Shown here piece after piece: positions 1-17,035 of a DNA stretch of 17,035 bases. Source of the DNA: a virus (taxonomy: Duplodnaviria; Heunggongvirae; Uroviricota; Caudoviricetes). Each line of letters begins with the position of its first letter. Position 1 is the first letter of the stretch. Position numbers and translations under genes: made by a program. A model generated the notes under the pieces. The model worked only from the letters and a program-made list of their open reading frames with translations. It did no database searches and was not told the DNA's origin. The stretch spans positions 1-17,035 of IMG/VR virus record IMGVR_UViG_2671180417_000010; one strand, 5' to 3'.

Positions 1-152
1 TACAACCCCGGACGGCAGAGCTCGCATGCTTTTTGGTTCCGGCTCCACCAGTATTCTGCCGTTATGGAATGCTGACATACATAACTTATTTCACATAACA
101 CGTTGATTTAATTAAATAATTTTCACCGCAAAAAGTGCCAAAAATCGCAAAA

Positions 153-185
153 TGACTACACCAGTGACTACACCGTTCGGTGCAC
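153..185. repeat. Left copy of terminal direct repeat (TGACTACACC x2 followed by GTTCGGTGCAC); candidate att junction
   Basis: 153..185 TGACTACACCAGTGACTACACCGTTCGGTGCAC against 15491..15523 TGACTACACCAGTGACTACACCGATCGTTGCAC: 31 of 33 identical, same orientation, about 15.3 kb apart. Confidence 0.4.
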
Positions 186-190
186 TGTAT

Positions 191-208
191 GAAACAACGT
201 GGAACAAA
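191..208 (+). promoter_or_regulatory. Two 10-bp-phased GAACAA-type units (GAAACAACGTGGAACAA) next to the left terminal repeat
   Basis: Same unit as the arrays at 7651..7680, 13911..13930, 14143..14188 and 15535..15554. Confidence 0.4.
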
Positions 209-286
209 TAGACACAAGAAATATACAGGCGGATCATCTTTCCAGGGGGAAGCGCACCAATTCATGAGGGGCGTTAATGTCGATAT

Positions 287-546
287 GGGGATCCCCACCT
301 ACCGGAATTTTTTTCCGGTTAAACGTTAATCAGGCTGGTGGGCTTTACCTGTTCGGTAGGTGTTATGATTATCGTAATACCTTTCCCCCAATGGGGTAAA
401 AGCATCAACCGTAACGAAAGTCGTTATGGTTGCCACTGATACCCCAAATTTGGGTATCACGAGTAAGCCCCAAAATCTGGGTGTTACTCTTACTACCCAA
501 ACTACGGGTAGTTTCCGTAGTTTCATGGTCGAGTTGCAGATCTGCA
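287..546. repeat. Cluster of palindromes in the non-coding left end: GGGGATCCCC (287..296), hairpin ACCGGAA-T5-TTCCGGT (301..319), CCCCAATGGGG (385..396), ACCCCAAATTTGGGT (442..455), CCCAAAATCTGGG (468..481), CCCAAACTACGGG (496..508), TTGCAGATCTGCAA (533..546)
   Basis: Read directly. Four related CCCAAA-N-TTTGGG half-site pairs spaced about 26-57 bp apart. The overlapping ORFs (86..298, 326..556, 426..686) have non-protein-like composition. Confidence 0.45.
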
Positions 547-804
547 ACTCCCCCATTAACCACAGGCGAATTTCCGCCTTCGGTCATTCCTTAATCATCT
601 GCGTAATCATAATGATTATTCAGCAAGCGCAATTTTGCGCTTTGCTTAAAGTTCAGCGAGTTACCGCGCCGACTTCCTCAAATTGAGGTTTCCGAAAATA
701 TCAGCGGGTTAGCGATTAAGCTGACCATTAATTAAACTGCGAAAATGTCGTAGTTGTGAGGGGTGTAGCCAACCCATTTTTGGGCCGTCGGGAATATCAA
801 CCAG

Positions 805-1086
805 TTACCGCCGCAACCGCTCCGGCTTCTTCCAGTGGTACGTTATTTTCTCCTTCTCCCGATACATCTCCACGCGGCGACGGTAGGCCAGCAACTCAAG
901 AACTCTGGTTCGTATGTTGCGCATATCCACGCCATTAAGTTCTATACCATCACGGCGCATCACCTCAGCAACAACACGCGCATAGTTTTCGGCTGTCACG
1001 CTGTCCGGCAGCGTGGCCTGTTCGTCAGCCTGCTGGCTGATTCCGGCAACGCGGCGGATTAATCCCGTTATTTCGGCTTCTGTCAT
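805..1086 (-). CDS. Hypothetical protein (93 aa) immediately downstream of terL
   Basis: ATG at 1084..1086 preceded by GAGGT. Starts 14 nt after the terL stop. Protein-like charged/amphipathic composition. No recognisable motif. Confidence 0.45.
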   Translation of the reverse strand: MTEAEITGLIRRVAGISQQADEQATLPDSVTAENYARVVAEVMRRDGIELNGVDMRNIRTRVLELLAYRRRVEMYREKEKITYHWKKPERLRR

Positions 1087-1099
1087 GCTGCTGACCTCA

Positions 1100-2761
1100 T
1101 TACACCCCGCTAAATTCTTCCAGTTTCTGGCGGTGGCTGTCGCTTATATCAAAAGCAAAATCCTCATGCTCTGCCTGGAATGTACCAAACGCCATCAGCG
1201 CCGCCACGCTCGGGTCTATCTTGTTCGGTGATTTTTTCTTGTTCGGCTTGATATTGGCGTTCGCGTCACTCTGCATCACGACGTTACTCATCGACCAGGA
1301 CAACACCGGATCGCCACGATGCACAATCACCCTGCGGTTAACAAAAACTTCGAACGATTTCGCCGCCGGACTGAATCTGAGGTAGGTTTGCGGGAACGGC
1401 TCCACCTCAAAACCTGCCCCCTGTAATTGCGTTCTGAGATGCGTGGCGTTCCACGTATCAAAGCCCACCAGCCTGATATTAAATTTCTCCGCGTCCTGCA
1501 TGATGTCATCTCTGATCCGGTCGTAATCAATGCAGTCGCCAGGCGTTGTGCGTATCCAGCCTGCTTTAGCCCACTGACGATAGATGGCGCGGTTTTTATT
1601 GGCGGGGTTCTGTAGCTGGAACTCCGGCAGATAATGACGGGAAACCAGCATAATGGTTTTACCTACCGGAAAGGCATAGCACACGCTGGAAATATCGCTT
1701 GTGGATGATAAATCCAGCCCCGCGTAACACTCCTGGCCGTGTAAATCTTCCTCTGTGAACGTTCCGGCACACTCAGCCCATGCGCCGTTACCCATCCACG
1801 GGGTAGCCCCCTGGCACCAGATATTAAATCGCTTTGTCATCATCTCCACCCACTGCGACGGAATACCCCGCGCTTTCTGGATGGTTGAGGCCAGTTTTTC
1901 ACGATCCACGGAAACATCAATATTAGGGTTCGCCTTTATCCACATCGCCGGATCATCAACCTCGTTTTCGTCGTCCAGTTCGTAAATCAGTACAAAAATT
2001 GAATCGTTGACCTCTTCGCCGTCCAGGATCTGGCAGCAATAATCATAGTGCTGCTTACAGGCTGAAACGACGTTACTGCCTGATGTGGTAATAGCAAATA
2101 ACAGCCCTTCGGGACGTGCGCCCATCCCCAGCTCAAGCGCGGAATAAACGCCGTTATCGGGGTGCAAGTGGTATTCGTCCACGATGGAAAGGCTGGGGTT
2201 TGTTCCCTCGATGGTTGCCGCTTTTGCTGCCAGCGGCTTTAACAGGCTGTTGCTTTTCGGGTGTATCACCTTATGCGCCTGAATATTCACCCGCCTGCGT
2301 AACGGTCGGGATAAAAGGCACATCTGACGCGCATCATCAAAGACGATCCGCGCCTGGTCACGGCTCACCGCTGCGGTGTAGATATCCTGCTGACCGTTCT
2401 CCATAATCAGAAACCAGTTAGCCAGAATCGCGGCGGTCGTTGATTTCGCATTTTTGCGCGGCACTTCGATAAAGGCGCTCGTATATTTGCGCCGTCCGGT
2501 GGCCTTAACCTTAAAGCCGAGAATGCACGCAAAGGCGAACTGCTGCCACGGCTCCAGCTCAATGGGTCTGCCACGCATCGGCCCTTTTACGTGCGGGCAC
2601 ACCCTGGAAAAGGCAATAAACCGATCCACAACCTCACGATCGAACGTGTAAAGGGGGCTTTTAAGGTCCGAAAAGTACCGTTTAACGGCCTGTTTCAGCC
2701 GTTTACAGGCCGGAATTTTGCCCGTTTTTACGTCTTCTGCGTACTTATTCCAGGCGGTCAA
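1100..2761 (-). CDS. terL: Terminase large subunit (HK97-type)
   Basis: 553-aa ORF. The ORF-track start at 2761 is a TTG preceded by GAGGA; the next in-frame Met is residue 62. N-terminus MTAWNKYAEDVKTGKIPACKRLKQAVKRYF and overall length are typical of phage large terminases. Overlaps terS by 17 nt. Confidence 0.85.
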   Translation of the reverse strand: MTAWNKYAEDVKTGKIPACKRLKQAVKRYFSDLKSPLYTFDREVVDRFIAFSRVCPHVKGPMRGRPIELEPWQQFAFACILGFKVKATGRRKYTSAFIEVPRKNAKSTTAAILANWFLIMENGQQDIYTAAVSRDQARIVFDDARQMCLLSRPLRRRVNIQAHKVIHPKSNSLLKPLAAKAATIEGTNPSLSIVDEYHLHPDNGVYSALELGMGARPEGLLFAITTSGSNVVSACKQHYDYCCQILDGEEVNDSIFVLIYELDDENEVDDPAMWIKANPNIDVSVDREKLASTIQKARGIPSQWVEMMTKRFNIWCQGATPWMGNGAWAECAGTFTEEDLHGQECYAGLDLSSTSDISSVCYAFPVGKTIMLVSRHYLPEFQLQNPANKNRAIYRQWAKAGWIRTTPGDCIDYDRIRDDIMQDAEKFNIRLVGFDTWNATHLRTQLQGAGFEVEPFPQTYLRFSPAAKSFEVFVNRRVIVHRGDPVLSWSMSNVVMQSDANANIKPNKKKSPNKIDPSVAALMAFGTFQAEHEDFAFDISDSHRQKLEEFSGV

Positions 2762-3101
2762 GCTCGTCCTCTTCTTCTGTTTCCGGTGGATTTTTACGGC
2801 GGCTTATCGGGTCAAAACCGAGCAAGGAGGCCATTTTTATCATCACTCTTTCCGCGTCGGATTTCGCGCTTAATGCGGGGTTTCTGCTCTCTCCGCCCTG
2901 ACTGTTAACAATGCTGAACCCGCGCGCCGCAAGGTCTGCGACGGCTTTCCGGTATATCGAGTAATTGACGCAATACAGTTCCAGATTGCTCCAGTCGGCG
3001 GGAGTCAGGTCACCCCGTTCCGCAAGCTGCCGCGATTTTTCCCGCCACTGCTTCACGGCGATATCATCCAGGTAGGCGGGGGCTTTCGGTGGTCTTGCCA
3101 T
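2745..3101 (-). CDS. terS: Terminase small subunit (P27-family-like)
   Basis: 118 aa, ATG at 3099..3101. Sequence LDDIAVKQWREKSRQLAERGDLTPADWSNLELYCVNYSIYRKAVADL...LLGFDPISRRK matches the conserved pattern of P27-type small terminases. Sits directly upstream of and overlapping terL. Confidence 0.8.
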   Translation of the reverse strand: MARPPKAPAYLDDIAVKQWREKSRQLAERGDLTPADWSNLELYCVNYSIYRKAVADLAARGFSIVNSQGGESRNPALSAKSDAERVMIKMASLLGFDPISRRKNPPETEEEDELDRLE

Positions 3102-3389
3102 ACTTATTTTTTCGCCAGATTATTTTTCAAAAAATTCCCGTGCATAAAAATTTGAGGAGGCGGTCGGTGCCCGGCGGGGTCGGGTTTGTCCTGAAAACGC
3201 CCCCCACCCCGTCATACAGCCTCATCAGCGATTGCGGAAACATTCCATAACCTCGCGGTCACGGTCGGTTAATCGCTTCGCTGTGATGCGTTCTGCGCGT
3301 CCTGACGCTTTATCTTTATGCCCTGTTTCCTGTGTCTTCATGCGTCACGCTGCCTTATAAGTCCACGGATAAGGCGGTTTTGTTCCCGC
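3102..3389. other. HNH-terS intergenic region; candidate cos site
   Basis: 288-bp non-coding gap with a GC-rich segment (GGAGGCGGTCGGTGCCCGGCGGGGTCGGG) and repeated GGTCGG/CGGTC motifs. In HK97-type cos phages the cohesive-end site lies between the HNH gene and terS. The exact cos position is not determinable from sequence. Confidence 0.3.
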
Positions 3390-3830
3390 TCATTCATCAG
3401 CGTCATACATCCAGTTATTGCGGTTAGCGGCCCGTTCTTCCTCTTCACGAAATCCACCTGCGGCACGCTTGCTTTTTGTTGCCGGATCAAGCCATTTCGT
3501 TTTCTGGTTATGACACGCCTGACACAATGGTTGATGGTTCCATTCGGGCCAGAAGAGAACATCATCACCGCCATTAATCGGGATAATGTGATCCACCACC
3601 ACGGCGGGCGTATATATCCCCTTCTCAAGGCATCGCACGCATAACGGGTTTTTACTCAGATACATGGCGCGGTATTTGTCCCACTGTCTGGAGTACCCAC
3701 GCGCGCGGCGGTGTCCTCGTCTGGCATCCTCTGCACGCCATGCCGCCCGCCTGTGCTCCTCACACTTGCCGGATTTAACGCGCCTGTTACAGCCTGGTTC
3801 TGTGCATCGTCTTAATGGTTGCCACGGCAT
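3390..3830 (-). CDS. HNH endonuclease (packaging-associated)
   Basis: 146 aa. N-terminal Cys cluster (CTEPGCNRRVKSGKCEEH) and HNH core VDHIIPINGGDDV...CQACHNQKT. Start ATG overlaps the connector stop (TAATG-type junction). Confidence 0.85.
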   Translation of the reverse strand: MPWQPLRRCTEPGCNRRVKSGKCEEHRRAAWRAEDARRGHRRARGYSRQWDKYRAMYLSKNPLCVRCLEKGIYTPAVVVDHIIPINGGDDVLFWPEWNHQPLCQACHNQKTKWLDPATKSKRAAGGFREEEERAANRNNWMYDADE

Positions 3831-4126
3831 CAGTACACCCCCACATCACGGTAAGCCGTCCAGAGCGCGCCAATCGTCATGGGTACGCGCGTTTTTGCGT
3901 TATCCGCTACCAGCTGGCGATTCTCGTACAGGTGAGCGATAAACATCATGCAGCCAATCTTTATGGCTGGCGTGAACTCCAGCCCGTCATCAAAGCGCCT
4001 GCCTATATGTATCTGGCACGCCTCAAGCGATGCGGCAATGTATCCGCTGATTAACTGGTCTTCCTCGTCGCCATCGATGCGGCAATGGAGTTTCACTTCT
4101 TCCAGGGTGATAAGTTCTTCTGTCAT
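3830..4126 (-). CDS. Head-tail connector protein (phage gp6-like)
   Basis: 98 aa. N-terminus MTEELITLEEVKLHCRIDGDEEDQLISGYIAASLEACQ matches the characteristic gp6-like opening (LxxAKxHLRIDxDxDDxLI). ATGA overlap with the upstream gene. Confidence 0.7.
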   Translation of the reverse strand: MTEELITLEEVKLHCRIDGDEEDQLISGYIAASLEACQIHIGRRFDDGLEFTPAIKIGCMMFIAHLYENRQLVADNAKTRVPMTIGALWTAYRDVGVY

Positions 4127-4461
4127 TTTTCCGCGCCCTCACGACAAAGAATTTCAAGGCGTGTCCTGGCGGCATCCGGCAGCGGCTGCCCGATGATATT
4201 CAGTACACGCCCCGCCAGCGGCCCCGTATTGACCTTTATCCGGCTGGTGGCGTTGATGTCCTTCCTGTAGCGTATCCATATCCTTACCGTTCCAGTCGCC
4301 AGTTCTGCACCCGATGAAATGGCCTCCTTGCTGCTGATCATGTTCACGCTTGCCCAGAGTGTGTGACCGTCCACCCACGTTTCGAGTATTTCGCCGGTTA
4401 TATCCCTGGTCTGTTTCAGGGTCTGAATCGTTACCCTGTCACGCAGTCGCCCTATGTTCAT
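4123..4461 (-). CDS. Head closure / head-tail joining protein
   Basis: Start set at ATG 4459..4461 (MNIGRLRDRVTIQ...), which forms an ATGA overlap with the portal stop and has GAGGGAG upstream. The ORF-track start at 4503 would overlap portal by 46 nt. Motifs RDRVTIQ, GEILETW, WASV..., IRYRKDI, LEILCRE resemble the head-tail joining family. Confidence 0.7.
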   Translation of the reverse strand: MNIGRLRDRVTIQTLKQTRDITGEILETWVDGHTLWASVNMISSKEAISSGAELATGTVRIWIRYRKDINATSRIKVNTGPLAGRVLNIIGQPLPDAARTRLEILCREGAEK

Positions 4462-5669
4462 TCCGGTTTTTCTCCCTCGCTGATTTTTACTTCCTGTTTC
4501 CATGCCTGGCTGAACTCATCACCACCATCACGCGGGGACAGCCCTTCACGTTCGCGGGCTTCGTTCGGGCACATAACGCCGGATTTGATGCCGCGTTCAT
4601 AGGTGGCAAAGCGTTCGCCAGGTGTGGCCCGTAACAGGTCCGCGCTGTCAAACTCCACCTGATACCGGATACCAGGTACAGGCGAGGCCACCAGCAGGGC
4701 GTTTTTTATCTGCTGCTCAAAGTTCGCCAGCCACGGGCGCATCGTCATGGTGAGAAATGCGCGGCTTGCCTCGCTGAAATTGCTGTAGGTGCTGTTGCTG
4801 TATTCCTGCAAAAAAATCGGCGAGACGTTGAACATTCGGGCGATGTCTTCAATGGTGAAGCGACGGGAGGCCAGCCATTCAGCATCCTGATTACTCATGC
4901 CCAGCTGCTGATAGCTCATACCCCCTTCAAGGATGGGCGTTTTTCCGGCGTTTCTGGCCCCTTTGTAGCGTTCCAGTGCGGCTAATGCCTGTTTACCCTT
5001 CACGCCGTCCAGCCACTCGCCTGACGTGATAACCCCTGCCGCCATCATGCCATCACGCATCACGCTCGCGCCGTGGCGTTGTTGGGCCAGCCCAAGCCCC
5101 AGCGATTCGCGGCAGATGGTTACAGGTGAGCGCCCCATAAAACCGTCATCCGTGGAGTAACGAAGGTGGAGAACCTCCCACGGTAAATAGTTGCGGGTGT
5201 TTCCGGTGTAGGCGTCAGTGATGCAGTAGCGCCAGTTATGCTCACCTGTCTGCTCCACGTTCACCGACTGCGGCGGGTAAGGATGTAAAGCCACCGGAAA
5301 ACCATCACGCCCCCACTGAATCACCGCATAAGCATTACCGTTTAACAGGCAGTGGCGGATCATCATTCGCTTAAACTGGTAGGGGGTTTGCCATGCGTTC
5401 GGGCGCTCGTTGAGGATGTGATCGACCGGATGAGAATCAAGCCACTCTCGGGCCTCCTTCCCCTTCTCATTGCGTACCAGGTACAGGTAACACGGCATGG
5501 TAGCCACCGCCTCAGAGATGACCGTGACGGCGTTCATGACGGCGGGCAGTGATTCCGCTGTCCCCGATGATACGTACTCACCCGCCCCCGTGTTCGATGT
5601 GCCAGCCAGCGCCATAAACTCATCAAGCGTCATGCTGCGCTGCTCTTTTTTTCTTCTGAAAGGCCACAT
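4458..5669 (-). CDS. Portal protein (HK97 family-like)
   Basis: 403 aa. ATG at 5667..5669 preceded by GGGGG, one nt after the protease stop. Size and sequence character typical of HK97-type portals; acidic C-terminus. Confidence 0.8.
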   Translation of the reverse strand: MWPFRRKKEQRSMTLDEFMALAGTSNTGAGEYVSSGTAESLPAVMNAVTVISEAVATMPCYLYLVRNEKGKEAREWLDSHPVDHILNERPNAWQTPYQFKRMMIRHCLLNGNAYAVIQWGRDGFPVALHPYPPQSVNVEQTGEHNWRYCITDAYTGNTRNYLPWEVLHLRYSTDDGFMGRSPVTICRESLGLGLAQQRHGASVMRDGMMAAGVITSGEWLDGVKGKQALAALERYKGARNAGKTPILEGGMSYQQLGMSNQDAEWLASRRFTIEDIARMFNVSPIFLQEYSNSTYSNFSEASRAFLTMTMRPWLANFEQQIKNALLVASPVPGIRYQVEFDSADLLRATPGERFATYERGIKSGVMCPNEAREREGLSPRDGGDEFSQAWKQEVKISEGEKPE

Positions 5670-5670
5670 A

Positions 5671-6228
5671 TCACACCCCCGCTAAATCCGCCCACCAGCG
5701 GCGATTATCCGCACGAGGCATTTTTTCAGGGTGCTGCTCATACAGGGAACGGCGGGCCAGCTCCACGCCGGAATCAGGGTAAGCCGGTACGGATGTCACG
5801 GTAATTTCGTACAGTTCCGCTATCAGTACAGTACGCACACATGGATCGACTGTCGTATCCCATACATCCTTACGGGAACGAAAGCCAAAGCTCATGCCCG
5901 AGATGTCACCACGTTTAACCAGTTCGATAACGTCCCGCCCTGTGCTGGTATCCGGTGGGATCAGTTCAAAACGTAACCCTGTGTCATCCTCTTCCAGTCT
6001 CAGCGTACCGGAACGGGTGCGCCCCAGTAACATGCTGTGGTCATGCTCATACAGGCCGCGAACGTCATTACCCACCGCAAGCCATTCAGTAAACGCCCCC
6101 CGCTGGAATTTTTCGTAAAATTCGCCCCATAACAGTTCTGAAAGGTTATCCCAGCGAACAACGTAGCCCGTAAGCGTGTTGCTGCCGCTGGTGGTGATTT
6201 CCGATGACCGGATTTCCATACTCATCAT
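5671..6228 (-). CDS. Prohead maturation protease (HK97 / peptidase S78-like)
   Basis: 185 aa. ATG at 6226..6228 with AGGTGA upstream. Motifs GYVVRWD, YEHDHSMLLGRT and GDISGMSFGF resemble the HK97 prohead protease His/Ser region. Confidence 0.75.
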   Translation of the reverse strand: MMSMEIRSSEITTSGSNTLTGYVVRWDNLSELLWGEFYEKFQRGAFTEWLAVGNDVRGLYEHDHSMLLGRTRSGTLRLEEDDTGLRFELIPPDTSTGRDVIELVKRGDISGMSFGFRSRKDVWDTTVDPCVRTVLIAELYEITVTSVPAYPDSGVELARRSLYEQHPEKMPRADNRRWWADLAGV

Positions 6229-6282
6229 AATTTTTTCACCTGTAAAACAGAGAAGGGGCTTTTTAGCCCCTTCGGTGTGCTG

Positions 6283-7440
6283 TTAATCGTCGTCCTGCGG
6301 CAGTTCCAGAATCTTTATAGCGTTCGAATCCACCACGCCACCGCCTAAATATTTCTGCGTGAAAATTTTGATAAAGCCCGGCTCTGTCAGGTTGTCCGGT
6401 CTGGTGCGCACGCCCGTTTCATGATCAACGATGTAATAACCGCGTTTGAAGTCACCCAGGGCGATAACGTTATCCGGCATAAATTCCAGATACTCCACCG
6501 GAAGCCCCAGCAACGTATCAGGATCACCCGCCTGTAAACGGTCGCGCCAGATGTAATCGCCGTTCGCGTTCTTCACCTTCTGAAGTTTTGCCGCCGTCGT
6601 GGAGTTAACCACCCAGACCGCGTTTTTGCGGTATTTTTTACGTAATGCAAATTTCAGGTCGATCAGCGGGTCCGCAGATGTCCACGCCAGAGATTCGGAA
6701 GGTTTAATTACCTGCAACGTACCAAAATCACGCTCTTTGTCGTTCTTCTCTGCACGGGGTACGGATAAAAAACCTTTTGCTTTTTTGTCACCGTCGCCCA
6801 CAACCAGATCGCTTTCTTCGGTTTCCGTGAAGGTGTCGCCAATCTCACCCGTCAGCCATGAAAGGATGTCCACATCGGAAAAATCCACGATTTCCTGTGT
6901 GGTGCGCGGGTACGCATAGACCGGATACAGCTTAATGCTCACCTCGTTAATCTGCGGGGTGCTGGTCTGTTCGCGTGCCTTACCCTCTTCACCGTGGTTA
7001 ACGGTCGCACCGCCAGCGGAAACAAGCTGCTTAAACTCGTTGCTGCTGATTTTCTTCACGGTACAGATGCGGCGCATGGTGGATTCATCCGCCAGCATTC
7101 GCATGATTTCGGTGTTCAGTTCAGGGATAACGGTATAACCACCATCAGCGGGAACGCCTGTACTTAATGCGCGGGTTTCACCGGTCAGAATGTAGTTGCG
7201 TAGTTCTGCGGGGTCAGTGGTCTGGCTGCTTTTACCTGGCTTGCTGCGCTCTTCGTCTGCAATGGCTTCAAGGCGGGAAATGTCTTTATCGAGGGATTCA
7301 GCTTTAGCGCGTAATTCGTCAAATTTTGCGCCCTCAGCATCGTTAAGACTGCGGTTTTCTTTTTCCGCGTTCTCCAGCATGTCGCGCATCTGATTTTTAA
7401 TGGCGGTTTTCTGCTGGCGTAATTCGATTATTCTCGGCAT
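6283..7440 (-). CDS. Major capsid protein (HK97 fold) with N-terminal delta/scaffold-like domain
   Basis: The ORF-track start at 7488 is a GTG lying inside an upstream hairpin. The first ATG is at 7438..7440 (MPRIIELRQQ...) with AGGA 8 nt upstream. N-terminal coiled-coil (IIELRQQKTAIKNQMRDMLENAEKENRSLNDAEGAKFDELRAKAESLDKDISRLEAI) plus C-terminal LLGLPVEYLEFMPD region typical of HK97-type capsid proteins. Confidence 0.8.
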   Translation of the reverse strand: MPRIIELRQQKTAIKNQMRDMLENAEKENRSLNDAEGAKFDELRAKAESLDKDISRLEAIADEERSKPGKSSQTTDPAELRNYILTGETRALSTGVPADGGYTVIPELNTEIMRMLADESTMRRICTVKKISSNEFKQLVSAGGATVNHGEEGKAREQTSTPQINEVSIKLYPVYAYPRTTQEIVDFSDVDILSWLTGEIGDTFTETEESDLVVGDGDKKAKGFLSVPRAEKNDKERDFGTLQVIKPSESLAWTSADPLIDLKFALRKKYRKNAVWVVNSTTAAKLQKVKNANGDYIWRDRLQAGDPDTLLGLPVEYLEFMPDNVIALGDFKRGYYIVDHETGVRTRPDNLTEPGFIKIFTQKYLGGGVVDSNAIKILELPQDDD

Positions 7441-7477
7441 AAAAAAAGTCCTGGGATTAAGTAAGGAACTCCAGGAC
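7441..7477 (-). promoter_or_regulatory. Hairpin plus U7 immediately upstream of the capsid start codon; the stem includes the capsid SD
   Basis: Minus strand reads GTCCTGG-(16 nt loop)-CCAGGAC-TTTTTTT-ATG. The 3' stem half CCAGGAC contains the AGGA Shine-Dalgarno. Seen directly. Confidence 0.45.
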
Positions 7478-7531
7478 GCGGCAAACACTCAACCGTTTTT
7501 CATAAGGAAATCAGCAATCGCACCGATCGTT

Positions 7532-7577
7532 TTCCCGCCTGGTAATGAATATTGGCGAGCACATTAACAGGCGGGAA
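7532..7577. promoter_or_regulatory. 16-bp imperfect inverted repeat (TTCCCGCCTGGTAATG / CATTAACAGGCGGGAA) with 14-bp spacer in the capsid-operon leader
   Basis: Arms at 7532..7547 and 7562..7577, one mismatch. Either a dimeric-regulator operator or a long RNA stem in the late leader. Confidence 0.45.
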
Positions 7578-7650
7578 AGTGGCCCCAGCGTCCTGGCACC
7601 ACGGGCGAGAATACTCATGATTCAGTTCGGGTAAAATATGCCGATCCTGT

Positions 7651-7680
7651 CAGTGAACAACGTGGAACAACCACGAACAA
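7651..7680 (+). promoter_or_regulatory. Three perfect 10-bp-phased GAACAA units (cagtGAACAA cgtgGAACAA ccacGAACAA); candidate activator-binding array for the capsid/late operon
   Basis: Read directly. Located just downstream (in the transcription direction) of the early-operon terminator and about 210 bp upstream of the capsid start. Confidence 0.5.
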
Positions 7681-7689
7681 ATAATTTAC

Positions 7690-7720
7690 AAAAAATGACA
7701 AAAAGCCGGATTTCTCCGGC
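7690..7720 (-). terminator. Rho-independent terminator after the PerC-like gene
   Basis: Minus strand reads GCCGGAGAAATCCGGC (6-bp GC stem, 4-nt loop) followed by TTTTTGTCATTTTTTGT. Hairpin 7705..7720 starts 8 nt after the stop at 7728. Confidence 0.65.
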
Positions 7721-14235: not shown

Positions 14236-15465
14236 TTATTTTCTTCTGGCTACTGGTAGCGTGGTTACGTTTTCATGTGTTCCCGCCAGTATCCCTAACC
14301 GCTCCGTCCACATATCCAGCGCATTGCGTTTAGCATCCAGATAACGGGAATGATTATAAACTCGCTGCATTCCTGGCATCTGGTGGCCTGTAAGCTGCTC
14401 CACGACATGCGGATCAACGCCTAAATCGTTCAGCATGGTTGTAAAGGTGCGCCGGATGTCATGCAGTGACCAGTGAGGATGATTAAGCCTCCTGTGCGCT
14501 AATCTTCCATACTGCGATACGCTGGCCTCCTGTTTCACTTCCCCCAGCAATAAGCCCGTGTGCCTGTTCTGCTCCACCAGCTGCGTGACGAACGGCAGGA
14601 TCGCTTCCGGTATGGGCCGGAATATTGCGACCTTCGTTTTGCTGTGCTCCTTCGGAACGGTCCATAGCATTTCCGTAAAATCCCACTCCCCGATCTCCGA
14701 TAACCTCAGTTCTACCGTTCTGGCTCCGAAGACAATCAGGAGGCGGATTAACGCGACGTAGTAAGGGGAGAATATTTTTTTGTCCAGTGCCTGCAATAAT
14801 TCGCCAAGTTCTTTGTTACTTAAGACACGTTCGCTTATATCCGGTTTTTTCCCAACGTCCGCCACGTTCAGATCGTCCAGAACGTTGCTGATTGCATAGC
14901 GCCGCCTACGGCAGAACTTAAGCGCCTGTTTGCACGCCTGTAGCACGAATCCGGCAGTAACAGGCGTTCGCTTTGCCACCTGGTCAAAACAGGCCAGCCA
15001 GTGCCGTAGCTCGCATTTATCCAGCGGCATAGCACCAATCTGCTGTATTACGTGATTATTAAGTCGCCTTTTCAGGGCGATATAATCCACGCGGTTTTCC
15101 TTTACGTAATACTCAAGCCAGTAGGTGAGCGCATCGCCAACCGTTACCGGCTTTAACGCTTCCTGTACGGTGTAATTAAGCTCATGACGTGGATTTTTCC
15201 CCTCTGCCAGCCATGCGCGACACTGGGCGGCTTTTTCCCTGGCTGATTTCAGGCTCAGATCAGGATAACTTCCCAGCTTAATGCGTTCGGGTCGTGTCTC
15301 CCTTCCCGTTCCGGCCCTGTATGTGAAATACCAGGTCAATTTCCCTGATGTTAAATATTTCACGCTCAGGTTTCCGCCATCACTATAAAACGTGTTTTTC
15401 TCCGCTGGCTTACCATGAAGTTTCCTTAGCAAGGTATCGCTCAGTTTGTTCATTGCTCTGCTCAC
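14236..15465 (-). CDS. int: Site-specific tyrosine integrase (P4 / CP4-type)
   Basis: 409 aa. The ORF-track start at 15465 is GTG with GGGGG 6 nt upstream; ATG alternative at 15453. Catalytic-domain motifs include WSLHDIRRTF (HxxR) and C-terminal GHQM...RVYNHSRYL (Tyr region). N-terminal region resembles an integrase arm-binding domain. Confidence 0.9.
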   Translation of the reverse strand: MSRAMNKLSDTLLRKLHGKPAEKNTFYSDGGNLSVKYLTSGKLTWYFTYRAGTGRETRPERIKLGSYPDLSLKSAREKAAQCRAWLAEGKNPRHELNYTVQEALKPVTVGDALTYWLEYYVKENRVDYIALKRRLNNHVIQQIGAMPLDKCELRHWLACFDQVAKRTPVTAGFVLQACKQALKFCRRRRYAISNVLDDLNVADVGKKPDISERVLSNKELGELLQALDKKIFSPYYVALIRLLIVFGARTVELRLSEIGEWDFTEMLWTVPKEHSKTKVAIFRPIPEAILPFVTQLVEQNRHTGLLLGEVKQEASVSQYGRLAHRRLNHPHWSLHDIRRTFTTMLNDLGVDPHVVEQLTGHQMPGMQRVYNHSRYLDAKRNALDMWTERLGILAGTHENVTTLPVARRK

Positions 15466-15490
15466 GTTTTACCCCCTCTTTACGAAAAAG

Positions 15491-15523
15491 TGACTACACC
15501 AGTGACTACACCGATCGTTGCAC
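15491..15523. repeat. Right copy of terminal direct repeat (TGACTACACC x2 + GATCGTTGCAC), 26 bp upstream of the int start; candidate att junction
   Basis: See 153..185; 31 of 33 identical. Confidence 0.4.
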
Positions 15524-15534
15524 AAAGGGCTACA

Positions 15535-15554
15535 ACGTGAAACAAGCTGGAACA
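15535..15554 (+). promoter_or_regulatory. Two 10-bp-phased GAACAA-type units (GTGAAACAA GCTGGAACAA) 70-90 bp upstream of int
   Basis: Read directly. Same orientation relative to its gene as the array at 7651..7680. Confidence 0.45.
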
Positions 15555-15722
15555 AGGAAAATCACAAATCTGTTGATAATCAAAAACATAATGCACAGCC
15601 TGAAACATTATGAAACAGCAAAAAACACTAAATGATAAAATGCTGTTATTGATTCACGGCCTGGCTTAACGATAACCAGACCGAGTTCCGGTACCAGAAC
15701 AGGTCGAAGTAATACCCGCACA

Positions 15723-16001
15723 TTACCTCCAGATCCGTTGCTGGAATGTGCGGGACGGACGCGCTGGCCGTTCTGAGTAAGGGAGCCTGACGGAGATTAT
15801 CCAGTGACGGTAGTCGAGGCTAAGGGCTTTTTTAACCTCGCATCCGCGCCTGCGGTAACACTGAATGAGCCATTCGGCCTGTTCTTCAGTGCATGGGGGA
15901 TGCTGGTACCAGTCAGATTTGAATGCGTGAAAACACCGTCCGCGCCTGCTGGCAAAGACGGCAGAATCATCAGAATTGTATAATTTGGTATCGTGCGCCA
16001 T
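15723..16001 (-). CDS. Hypothetical protein (about 92 aa) in the right flank
   Basis: The ORF-track start at 16082 is TTG and overlaps the hok terminator hairpin. ATG alternative at 16001 with weak SD. Trp/Arg/Cys-rich. No recognisable motif; could be spurious. Confidence 0.25.
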   Translation of the reverse strand: MAHDTKLYNSDDSAVFASRRGRCFHAFKSDWYQHPPCTEEQAEWLIQCYRRRGCEVKKALSLDYRHWIISVRLPYSERPARPSRTFQQRIWR

Positions 16002-16073
16002 CGGTTGTCTCTGCTGGCGCAGCAGGTGCCAGTTGTTCAGGCTGGCGTGCGAATTGTAAACCAGAATGCCAGG

Positions 16074-16100
16074 AAAAAACAAAACCCGCCGAAGCGGGTT
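16074..16100 (-). terminator. Rho-independent terminator downstream of hok
   Basis: Minus strand reads AACCCGCTTCGGCGGGTT followed by TTTGTTTTTT (hairpin 16083..16100, A-run 16074..16084 on the plus strand). Confidence 0.6.
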
Positions 16101-16168
16101 AAGTGCGGGTGCGTTGAGGATGCCTGATTCATCAGAGGTGGCGAGGGATTTCTCCCTCGCCGGGTCTC

Positions 16169-16324
16169 TTACTCCTCAGGTTCGTAAGCTGTGAAGACAG
16201 CGACCTCCGTCTGGCCGGTTCGGATTCGTACCTCGCAGAGGTCTTTCCTCGTTACCAGTGCCGTCACTATGACGGTGATACAGATGACGATCAGGGCGAT
16301 TAACATCGCCTTTTGCTGCTTCAT
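16169..16324 (-). CDS. hok: Hok/Gef-family type I toxin (small membrane peptide). The in-frame upstream extension to ATG 16381 corresponds to a mok-like frame.
   Basis: 51 aa: MKQQKAMLIALIVICITVIVTALVTRKDLCEVRIRTGQTEVAVFTAYEPEE. Hydrophobic helix followed by the conserved RKDLCE...TGQTEVAVF...AYE pattern of Hok/Gef toxins; closest by recollection to HokC (Gef). The 70-aa ORF 16169..16381 (MLDICRLASYAPKGKEKQA + Hok) resembles MokC organisation. Confidence 0.8.
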   Translation of the reverse strand: MKQQKAMLIALIVICITVIVTALVTRKDLCEVRIRTGQTEVAVFTAYEPEE

Positions 16325-16569
16325 AGCCTGCTTCTCCTTGCCTTTCGGCGCGTAAGAGGCTAACCTACATATGTCTAGCATGAAATTGGCCTCAGATTAA
16401 TGTTAGGCGTCTTGCAGGACGCGTAATGTTAACTGGGGCTTTTCTCTGTCTGCCTTACGGTGGCATGCCCGAGGCAGACAGCCTCAAGCACCCGCAGCAA
16501 TTCTACTTAACTCTCGCTTTACCGCAAACCGTTTTTACCCGATATGGGAATTCCCATATCGTAATGAAT

Positions 16570-16674
16570 TCAGTTCCCTAGTCGATCCATCAAAAACACA
16601 ACCAGGCAGTAAACGCCCACAACAGCAATAACAGCCAGCGCACCTTCTATTGCCAGTGAAATATCATCCGACAT
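16570..16674 (-). CDS. Candidate small hydrophobic membrane peptide (34 aa), below the ORF-track size cut-off
   Basis: GGAGGG SD 3 nt upstream of ATG 16672..16674. Translates to MSDDISLAIEGALAVIAVVGVYCLVVFLMDRLGN, a single predicted transmembrane helix. Not recognised as a named family. Confidence 0.3.
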   Translation of the reverse strand: MSDDISLAIEGALAVIAVVGVYCLVVFLMDRLGN

Positions 16675-16789
16675 ATTCCCTCCTTTGGTGTGAATCCCGG
16701 CGAACGTTTTTACCCCCACCGACAAATAACATATACTAAAAAATCAATAGCTATAGCAACGCCTGTAATTGCAAAGGCTTCAGGCCAGA

Positions 16790-16972
16790 TCATTGGCGCA
16801 CCTCCTGCGGCGGTTCTGGTAGCGGCATCCAGTCGGTTACATTGCGGCTCTGTGTTTCGAAAAATTCATCACCATTACGGACTACATCAAAAAACTCACC
16901 GTCTCGATATTGCGCATAAAGAACGAATGCGCCATCACATAAAATAATTACGTGCTGACCATCATCCGGCAT
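16790..16972 (-). CDS. Hypothetical small acidic protein (60 aa)
   Basis: ATG at 16970..16972 with an in-frame upstream stop inside the window. Protein-like composition (MPDDGQHVIILCDGAFVLYAQYRDGEFFDVV...). The overlapping plus-strand ORF 16690..16947 is His/Arg-rich and less plausible. Confidence 0.35.
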   Translation of the reverse strand: MPDDGQHVIILCDGAFVLYAQYRDGEFFDVVRNGDEFFETQSRNVTDWMPLPEPPQEVRQ

Positions 16973-17035
16973 TCGCTCACTACAGCTTATCCAACCATCC
17001 GGAGTTACCGGATAGTTGGTTGACGTTTCCGAGAT

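Follow-up and report, generated by a model that had tools for sequence, protein, structure and literature searches.

The window analyzed here is a stretch of 17,035 nucleotides (positions 1 to 17,035 of the IMG/VR virus record IMGVR_UViG_2671180417_000010) that contains an approximately 15.6-kb capsid-forming phage-inducible chromosomal island (cf-PICI). The island is related to EcCIEDL933 and extends from a core repeat at 68–78 to a core repeat at 15639–15649. Near each of its ends, it carries one copy of a 33-bp direct repeat. These repeats are likely to be paired arm-type sites for the P4-type tyrosine integrase (Int) of the island, flanked by candidate boxes for the winged-helix excisionase and activator AlpA. 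The assignment draws on the position of the island boundaries, the geometry of the repeats with respect to the crossover cores, their conservation in related islands, and their covariation with the two proteins.

Repeats, junctions and geometry of the attachment arms

The two copies, TGACTACACCAGTGACTACACCGTTCGGTGCAC (153–185) and TGACTACACCAGTGACTACACCGATCGTTGCAC (15491–15523), are co-oriented and identical at 31 of 33 positions, in agreement with the two mismatches described in an earlier note on this DNA. By the present calculation, the chance expectation of a 33-mer pair with at most two mismatches in the window is approximately 1e-8. A repeat finder extends the pair to 149–224 and 15487–15562, that is, to 76 nt at 76% identity; the similarity thus does continue beyond 33 bp, over a longer distance than the approximately 65 bp first estimated. 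Read in the direction of int, each repeat contains GGTGTAGTCAct GGTGTAGTCA, which form a tandem pair at a 12-bp period. The exact 10-mer TGACTACACC is found four times in 17 kb, always within the two tandem pairs. The right copy starts just upstream of the GTG start codon of int (15465, minus strand), at a distance of 25 nt rather than the 26 nt counted previously. The GAACAA-type units noticed beside each copy are likewise real (192–207 and 15540–15555).

The boundaries of the island are defined by an uninterrupted site. In E. coli O103:H2 12009 (locus L003), the sequence ...ccgttatggAATGCTGACATtgattcacgg... corresponds to window positions 1–78 joined directly to 15650 onward, and therefore the junctions lie at 68–78 and 15639–15649, an 11-bp imperfect repeat. 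Each 33-bp repeat is separated from its junction core by island DNA, 74 bp on the left and 115 bp on the right, so that the repeats are near the island ends, as first described, but not at them. Homology with sister islands at other chromosomal sites ends at approximately 52–97 on the left and at 15641–15650 on the right, in both cases outside the 33-bp repeats. When the window flanks are joined across a single core, the resulting sequence is contiguous in 3414 of 5426 complete E. coli genomes (contiguous meaning at least 80% of a 200-nt joined-flank query in one place), with full-length matches of 99.5% in the best. The corresponding reconstruction of the empty tqsA site, the locus occupied by several sister islands, is contiguous in 5170 of the 5426 genomes, with 100% in the best.

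With the cores placed in this way, one TGACTACACC pair is seen to fall in each att arm, flanking the core without entering it; the sequence of the pairs is unrelated to the core AATGCTG(AC/TT)AT. This arrangement is conserved. In the window, as in each of seven other complete islands examined (7/7), the doubled motif is found exactly twice, co-oriented, with one copy 19–35 bp upstream of int and the other at the far end. The seven are cf-PICIs in tqsA (L001), yifB (L005), and rcnR-thiM (L007), EcCIEDL933 in phoQ-roxA (L002), EcCICFT073 in roxA-phoQ (L019), the PICI of E. coli 042 in tqsA (L004), and a PICI in cspD-clpS (L006). Core distances were measured in six of them (L001, L002, and L004–L007), the short core of L005, which was missed by the automatic search, being read by eye. 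In the window, and likewise in five of these six islands, the int-side pair is 131–136 bp and the far-side pair 76–82 bp from the core center. In L007, a lineage-specific base change, GTGTGGTCA, is present at all four half-sites, in the distal pair as well as in the proximal one.

More distant relatives retain the position of the pair with a different sequence. Integrases that are 42–92% identical to that of the window are accompanied by cognate pairs 17–37 bp upstream of int. Those of 42–57% identity (Serratia, Erwinia, Raoultella, Tolumonas, and Xenorhabdus) have a cognate tandem pair at the same place in lineage-specific versions, namely GTGTAGTCT, GTGTGTCAC in four copies, and GTGTATTGC. 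A single conserved doubled motif across all relatives was considered and rejected, since L012 differs in motif and period and L013 has four tandem copies. In L012 (Serratia; Int 48% identical), TTGAACCGAC repeats with a period of approximately 11 bp, together with inverted copies, replace the 12-bp pair at approximately 9790–9940, and in L013 (Tolumonas) four tandem 12-bp units, rather than two, occupy 9930–9982. Both are variants of the arm architecture.

Relation of the repeats to Int and AlpA

The integrase has a separate N-terminal domain of the arm-binding type (Pfam PF13356, Arm-DNA-bind_3, residues 8–95, E = 1.3e-18, 67.3 bits versus a cut-off of 27) in addition to PF00589. Together with pairs in both arms outside the core, and with a position that is conserved while the sequence changes with the integrase, this is the pattern of arm-type sites.

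Pairwise identities of the Int arm domain (residues 1–100) and of AlpA were compared with the DNA elements that each island carries. In L006, a natural chimera, the Int arm domain is 78–83% identical to the window group versus 60–62% to L007 and L022, and the motif is of the window type, GTGTAGT. The AlpA of L006 is 79–82% identical to L007 and L022 versus 53–56% to the window group, and both arms of this island have three TGTTCG units at 10-bp spacing, as in L007; all islands with AlpA of type 1 have two TGTT(C/T)CA units per arm. Between the window and EcCIEDL933, AlpA is 100% identical, the arm domains are 82% identical, and the pair subtypes differ (GTAGTCACT versus GTAGTTAAT). In L005, AlpA is nearest to the CFT073 group (97%), the arm domain is nearest to the window (91%), and the proximal pair is of the window subtype. 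On this sequence comparison, the three contrasts indicate that the 12-bp pairs follow the Int arm domain and that the phased GAACAA units follow the AlpA type. The chimera L006 thus offers comparative evidence that Int would read the 12-bp pairs and AlpA the phased units, a question left open in the literature.

The GAACAA-type units are not confined to the arms. When a phased pair is defined as GAACAA, 4 nt, GAACAA with at most two mismatches, 11 are observed in the window versus 2.0 ± 1.4 in shuffled sequences. At the stricter cut of at most one mismatch, four conserved places hold phased pairs: each of the two arms, the int–alpA spacer, and the stretch just upstream of the capsid gene. No such pairs occur beyond those four in the window, L001, L002, or L017; a single extra one is found in L005, a locus of 37 kb of which approximately 22 kb is chromosomal flank. 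The capsid-proximal array is conserved in EcCIEDL933 and other cf-PICIs, and the int–alpA array of the window is also present upstream of alpA in EcCICFT073. In the latter island, AlpA activates the promoter of its own gene, and expression of AlpA alone drives Int-dependent excision (PMC6092414). No sigma-70 consensus promoter was predicted upstream of the capsid gene, which fits an activator-dependent promoter. Candidate AlpA boxes at this position suggest how cf-PICIs may switch on their packaging genes. The array upstream of alpA was rejected as a universal feature, as it is not evident in AlpA type-2 islands. In one of these, L007 (E. coli UMNF18), the alpA start codon is immediately preceded by a strong terminator-like hairpin with a T run after it (approximately 19800–19846), a hint that alpA may be controlled differently there, possibly by antitermination. 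Between the cores and the pairs, three matches to the integration host factor (IHF) consensus are found in the 440 bp scanned, versus a rate of 0.76 per kb in the whole window.

Several other explanations of the repeats were weighed. The earlier note had read them as the recombination junctions themselves, either as attL and attR cores or as a duplicated copy of the target carried by the island, and near-identical direct repeats close to both island ends, one of them beside int, do invite such a reading. The comparison with an empty site, which had been named beforehand as the refuting test, was run and places the island boundaries outside the repeats: the island-free site joins its flanks at 68–78/15639–15649, has neither repeat, and lacks TGACTACACC even at one mismatch. 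The same repeats are found inside islands at tqsA, phoQ-roxA, yifB, and cspD-clpS, with a cognate variant at rcnR-thiM, and each of these loci has a different core. The idea that the repeats are the junctions is left with next to no probability; in a broad sense the repeats can be counted as parts of attL and attR, since they lie in the P′ and P arms, but they are not the crossover sites. Hardly any weight, again, can be given to a function as packaging (cos or pac) or replication signals of the satellite, which terminal direct repeats in a packaged element might suggest. A separate cluster of GGGACAA iterons lies downstream of the primase gene, the reported position of PICI origins, the same pairs are present in L004, L006, and L019, classical PICIs whose packaging modules are different, and the pairs in phage P4 are annotated as attP arm repeats. 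It is also highly improbable that the repeats are only operators of int or of another island regulator, with the far-end copy a relic that has no role in recombination. The proximal pair does occupy a typical operator position 25 nt upstream of int, but a relic would drift, whereas none of the complete islands examined (that of the window and seven others) has lost the far-end copy, which stands at a fixed distance from the core where this was measured and in L007 has undergone the same change to GTGTGGTCA as the proximal pair.

An unlikely explanation is that AlpA rather than Int binds the tandem TGACTACACC pairs, the GAACAA units serving another factor or bent DNA. Head-to-tail binding to tandem direct repeats is known from winged-helix excisionases (PMC11963761), excision needs AlpA (PMC6092414), and AlpA is among the binders left open by the authors who described the doubled motif of helper-embedded PICIs (HE-PICIs) (PMC10111431). 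Yet the motif subtypes of the window and EcCIEDL933 differ in the presence of an identical AlpA, L006 combines the AlpA type of L007 with the motif of the window group, and the pairs are missing from the alpA promoter region, where AlpA acts. The 12-bp period and the presence of exactly four half-sites agree with a tetrameric integrase and with the arm repeats annotated in P4. The other alternative raised in the earlier note, that the repeats are binding-site modules built of a tandem TGACTACACC pair, is essentially what the sequence evidence supports.

If the repeats are arm-type sites, the tandem, 12-bp-spaced units would be bound by the N-terminal arm domain of Int, one pair lying beside int, in the P arm, and the other at the opposite island end, in the P′ arm. 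Once the island is excised as a circle, two co-oriented pairs would flank the core at distances of approximately 132 and 81 bp, providing four half-sites for an integrase tetramer. The tetramer would bridge arm and core DNA, with IHF bending the DNA in between and returning the arms to the core. The GAACAA units, which are one helical turn apart, are most likely AlpA boxes. In the integrated state, AlpA produced once the helper phage is induced would cover the phased boxes of both attL and attR, giving the excisive complex its shape. AlpA would also activate alpA and the capsid operon, and the boxes there would tie excision to expression of the island genes. Because the proximal pair is located in the interval from the core to the int start codon, Int bound at this pair probably represses its own gene, as in related systems.

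Some points weigh against this interpretation. The covariation rests on approximately three independent contrasts, and the arms adjoin int in the excised circle, so that exchange of int and attP as a module could link the motif to Int without direct contact. The authors describing the HE-PICI motif left its binder open among the integrase tetramer's arm domains, AlpA, or another protein (PMC10111431). Islands with AlpA of type 1 have a GAACAA array upstream of alpA, and none is evident in those with type 2. No sigma-70-like int promoter was predicted between the core and int, so autoregulation is proposed only by analogy.

A broader proposal can be put forward as no more than tentative. It holds that the approximately 76-bp terminal repeat is a two-part pad, composed of an Int pair and an AlpA array, that is general to P4-type PICI integrases far outside the HE-PICI clade and whose halves co-vary independently with Int and with AlpA; that an AlpA regulon couples excision to the capsid genes; and that the island in the window is a rare off-target insertion into an early prophage gene. 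If this is true, an off-target insertion that is co-oriented with a prophage would be the kind of event able to seed helper-embedded satellites.

Insertion site and content of the island

The insertion interrupts the DUF968 gene of a lambdoid prophage after approximately 24 codons, in its 5′ part, and the island is co-oriented with DUF968. The annotation changes accordingly: the island boundaries move to the two cores, and the target is the prophage DUF968 gene. The right flank is lambdoid prophage DNA with DUF968, hokD/sok, and DUF551. A hokD toxin open reading frame (ORF) and a sok antisense RNA (Rfam, 114 bits) at 16169–16493 on the minus strand belong to this flanking prophage and lie outside the island. 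In the L003 prophage, DUF968 is flanked on one side by hokD/DUF551 and the replication genes, with the RusA and antitermination genes on its opposite side. Insertion into DUF968 could interrupt early-to-late read-through of the host prophage. No target gene is restored by the insertion; DUF968 here and tqsA in the sister islands are simply split. As had been surmised, the target is not a tRNA gene: ARAGORN found no tRNA or tmRNA in the window, and Rfam found no family at either repeat, its matches lying elsewhere.

DUF968 looks like a rare secondary site for an integrase that normally targets tqsA. The integrase of the window is 100% identical to those of the E. coli 042 PICI and of cf-PICIs in tqsA, and the sister islands in tqsA have the core TGCTGTTAT at both junctions. 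The insertion into DUF968 looks rare because neither window junction, left or right, occurs in the 5426 complete E. coli genomes. Leftward of the core, the DUF968 and tqsA sites share 19 of 27 positions; over all 50 positions compared, they share 26. The two cores in the window differ at two adjacent bases in a reciprocal manner, attL having the AC of the host and attR the TT of the island. Judged by the standard mechanism of tyrosine recombinases, this reciprocity would fit a mismatched dinucleotide inside the strand-exchange overlap, with the heteroduplex segregated by replication. At position 80, a further T-to-C difference matches neither parent sequence. The attP junction expected in the excised circle is ...GATAAAATGCTG(TT/AC)ATACATAAC..., and the restored DUF968 site would be ...GGAATGCTGACATTGATTC.... 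Neither the attP junction nor the attL junction of the window had a match in IMG/VR viral contigs, and the circular junction is therefore a deduced rather than an observed one.

The gene content was taken from Pfam scans of the window and from the RefSeq annotation of islands that are 94–97% identical. The window matches cf-PICIs of E. coli at 97% identity across 83% of its length. Pfam matches in the window for Int, AlpA, the DUF927 primase, and PerC, together with the full set of head and packaging genes and no tail genes in the RefSeq annotation of the close relatives, identify the island as a cf-PICI. The features of the window are listed below.

Features of the island and its flanks, in window coordinates
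Feature	Position	Strand	Remarks
Prophage DUF968 gene, 3′ portion downstream of the insertion point	1–67	−	
attL crossover core AATGCTGACAT, attB-type version	68–78		Island-free site L003 has exactly one copy and joins window 1–78 to 15650 onward
Perfect IHF consensus WATCAANNNNTTR, core to distal pair	96–108	−	Consensus match only
int-distal (P′ arm) pair, candidate integrase arm-type sites, 2 × GGTGTAGTCA, 12-bp period	153–174	−	Near edge 80–82 bp from core center
Spacer GTTCGGTGCAC between Int pair and GAACAA units, remainder of 33-bp repeat	175–185		Conserved in close relatives only
10-bp-phased GAACAA-type units, P′ arm, candidate AlpA boxes	189–217	+	
Capsid, protease, portal, connector, HNH, terS, terL block	~1100–7488		
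Three perfectly phased GAACAA units between perC terminator (7704–7721) and capsid operon	7655–7680	+	
DUF927 primase	9105–11249		
alpA, winged-helix excisionase/activator	13681–13869	−	Pfam PF05930, E = 5.4e-17
GAACAA-type unit pair just upstream of alpA	13914–13929	−	Overlaps promoter-like −10 element
Four 10-bp-phased GAACAA/CAACAA units between int and alpA	14144–14179	−	Weaker fifth unit (ATACAA) beyond
int, tyrosine integrase with N-terminal arm DNA-binding domain	14236–15465	−	GTG start at 15465; 409-aa ORF
int-proximal (P arm) pair, candidate integrase arm-type sites	15491–15512	−	131–133 bp from core center; 25 nt upstream of int start codon
Matching P-arm spacer GATCGTTGCAC, remainder of 33-bp repeat	15513–15523		
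10-bp-phased GAACAA-type units, P arm, candidate AlpA boxes	15537–15555	+	
Two overlapping IHF-like matches, core to proximal pair	15566–15590		One mismatch each
Three further 10-bp-phased (G/A)AAACA units	15602–15627	+	12–37 bp from core; read from sequence; marked as TGTTT units
attR crossover core AATGCTGTTAT, island/attP-type version as at tqsA site	15639–15649		
Prophage DUF968 gene, first ~24 codons, cut off by island	15650–15721	−	L003 CDS 2033–3082; L003 3001 = window 15640

Three further features were observed in the island. A 60-aa hypothetical protein, WP_001332680.1, is annotated by RefSeq in sister islands across the P arm (approximately 15453–15635, plus strand), where it overlaps the arm sites and the int start; this ORF is probably not a real gene. 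Approximately nine GGGACAA iterons in both orientations are clustered at 8816–9079, immediately 3′ of the primase gene, and are likely to be the replication origin of the island. On the minus strand, Rfam identifies a C4 antisense RNA at 12374–12461 (69 bits) and an a1/b1 target element at 12529–12578 (46.8 bits), an RNA immunity module of the P1/P7 type. The module lies within the part of the island that differs from its closest relatives, and the equivalent location in related islands is annotated with a gene for an Icd-like cell-division inhibitor.

Comparison with known systems

Among the closest described systems is EcCIEDL933, to which the island is 94% identical across 80% of the window. 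The gene order int, alpA, primase, perC, capsid, protease, portal, connectors, HNH, terS, and terL is common to the window and to the EcCIEDL933/cf-PICI family (bioRxiv 10.1101/2022.09.08.507074), and EcCIEDL933 and EcCICFT073 (PMC6092414) have the same arm modules as the window. EcCIEDL933 differs in its integrase allele and in its core, which is of the phoQ-roxA type, ATATGTCC, in place of the tqsA type, AATGCTGTTAT, and the island in the window lies inside a prophage.

Two other systems bear on the proposed functions of Int and AlpA. Similar to the window, int of the KplE1 prophage (IntS/TorI; PMC2951348) points into the element, with an att arm between the core and the int start; the attL of KplE1 overlaps the intS promoter. 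KplE1 IntS and P4 Int repress their own genes via arm sites that overlap the int promoter, and the excisionase sites of KplE1 also overlap the int control region (PMC2951348). KplE1 differs in its integrase lineage, its site sequences, and its tRNA target, and autoregulation in the island of the window is proposed by inference only. The att site of ICEMlSymR7A (IntS; PMC11963761) is several hundred base pairs long and has several arm-type Int motifs, as is seen here. Its winged-helix excisionase, RdfS, oligomerizes head to tail with approximately one DNA turn per subunit beside an arm site and also regulates transcription (PMC11963761). RdfS has no clear consensus motif, unlike the well-defined units of the window, and the element is an integrative and conjugative element.

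The arrangement of the repeats itself is already known. It is the paired arm-site arrangement of phage P4, and its sequence is a variant of the doubled motif of HE-PICIs. The P4 record (NC_001609) annotates co-oriented 12-bp pairs named "attP arm sequence repeat" on both sides of the core, as is observed here, with one pair 15 bp upstream of P4 int (25 nt in the window). An arm-type DNA-binding domain is annotated in the P4 integrase. The AlpA of the window and P4 Vis, both members of the AlpA/Vis family, share 45% identity. The main differences are that P4 has the motif TGGGGGCA instead of GGTGTAGTCA, distances from the core center to the pairs of approximately 64 and 123 bp instead of 81 and 132 bp, an extra inverted copy at the int start, and a tRNA-Leu gene as its target; the two integrases are only 24% identical.

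In HE-PICIs, two copies of a doubled motif, tgTGTATTGCantgTGTATTGCa, have been described at 81 ± 2 and 132 ± 2 bp from the center of attP, and this motif was reported to be absent from other PICIs (PMC10111431). As in the window, where the corresponding distances are 80–82 and 131–133 bp, the two copies are co-oriented, have a 12-bp period, and are arranged with the 132-bp copy on the int side. The motif sequence of HE-PICIs, TGTATTGC, is not that of the window, in which the core motif TGTAGTCA matches it at five of eight positions; the exact HE-PICI motif, GTGTATTGC, is carried at the same place by L014 and L015, the integrases of which are 42% identical to that of the window. HE-PICIs also differ in targeting a prophage late gene, the usual target of the island studied here being tqsA. 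In its present position, the island lies within a prophage gene and is co-oriented with it; DUF968 is located outside the late region, and the junction is present in 0 of the 5426 genomes. None of these results overturns current understanding; the doubled motif of HE-PICIs is one variant of an arrangement that is common to cf-PICIs, classical E. coli PICIs, and phage P4.

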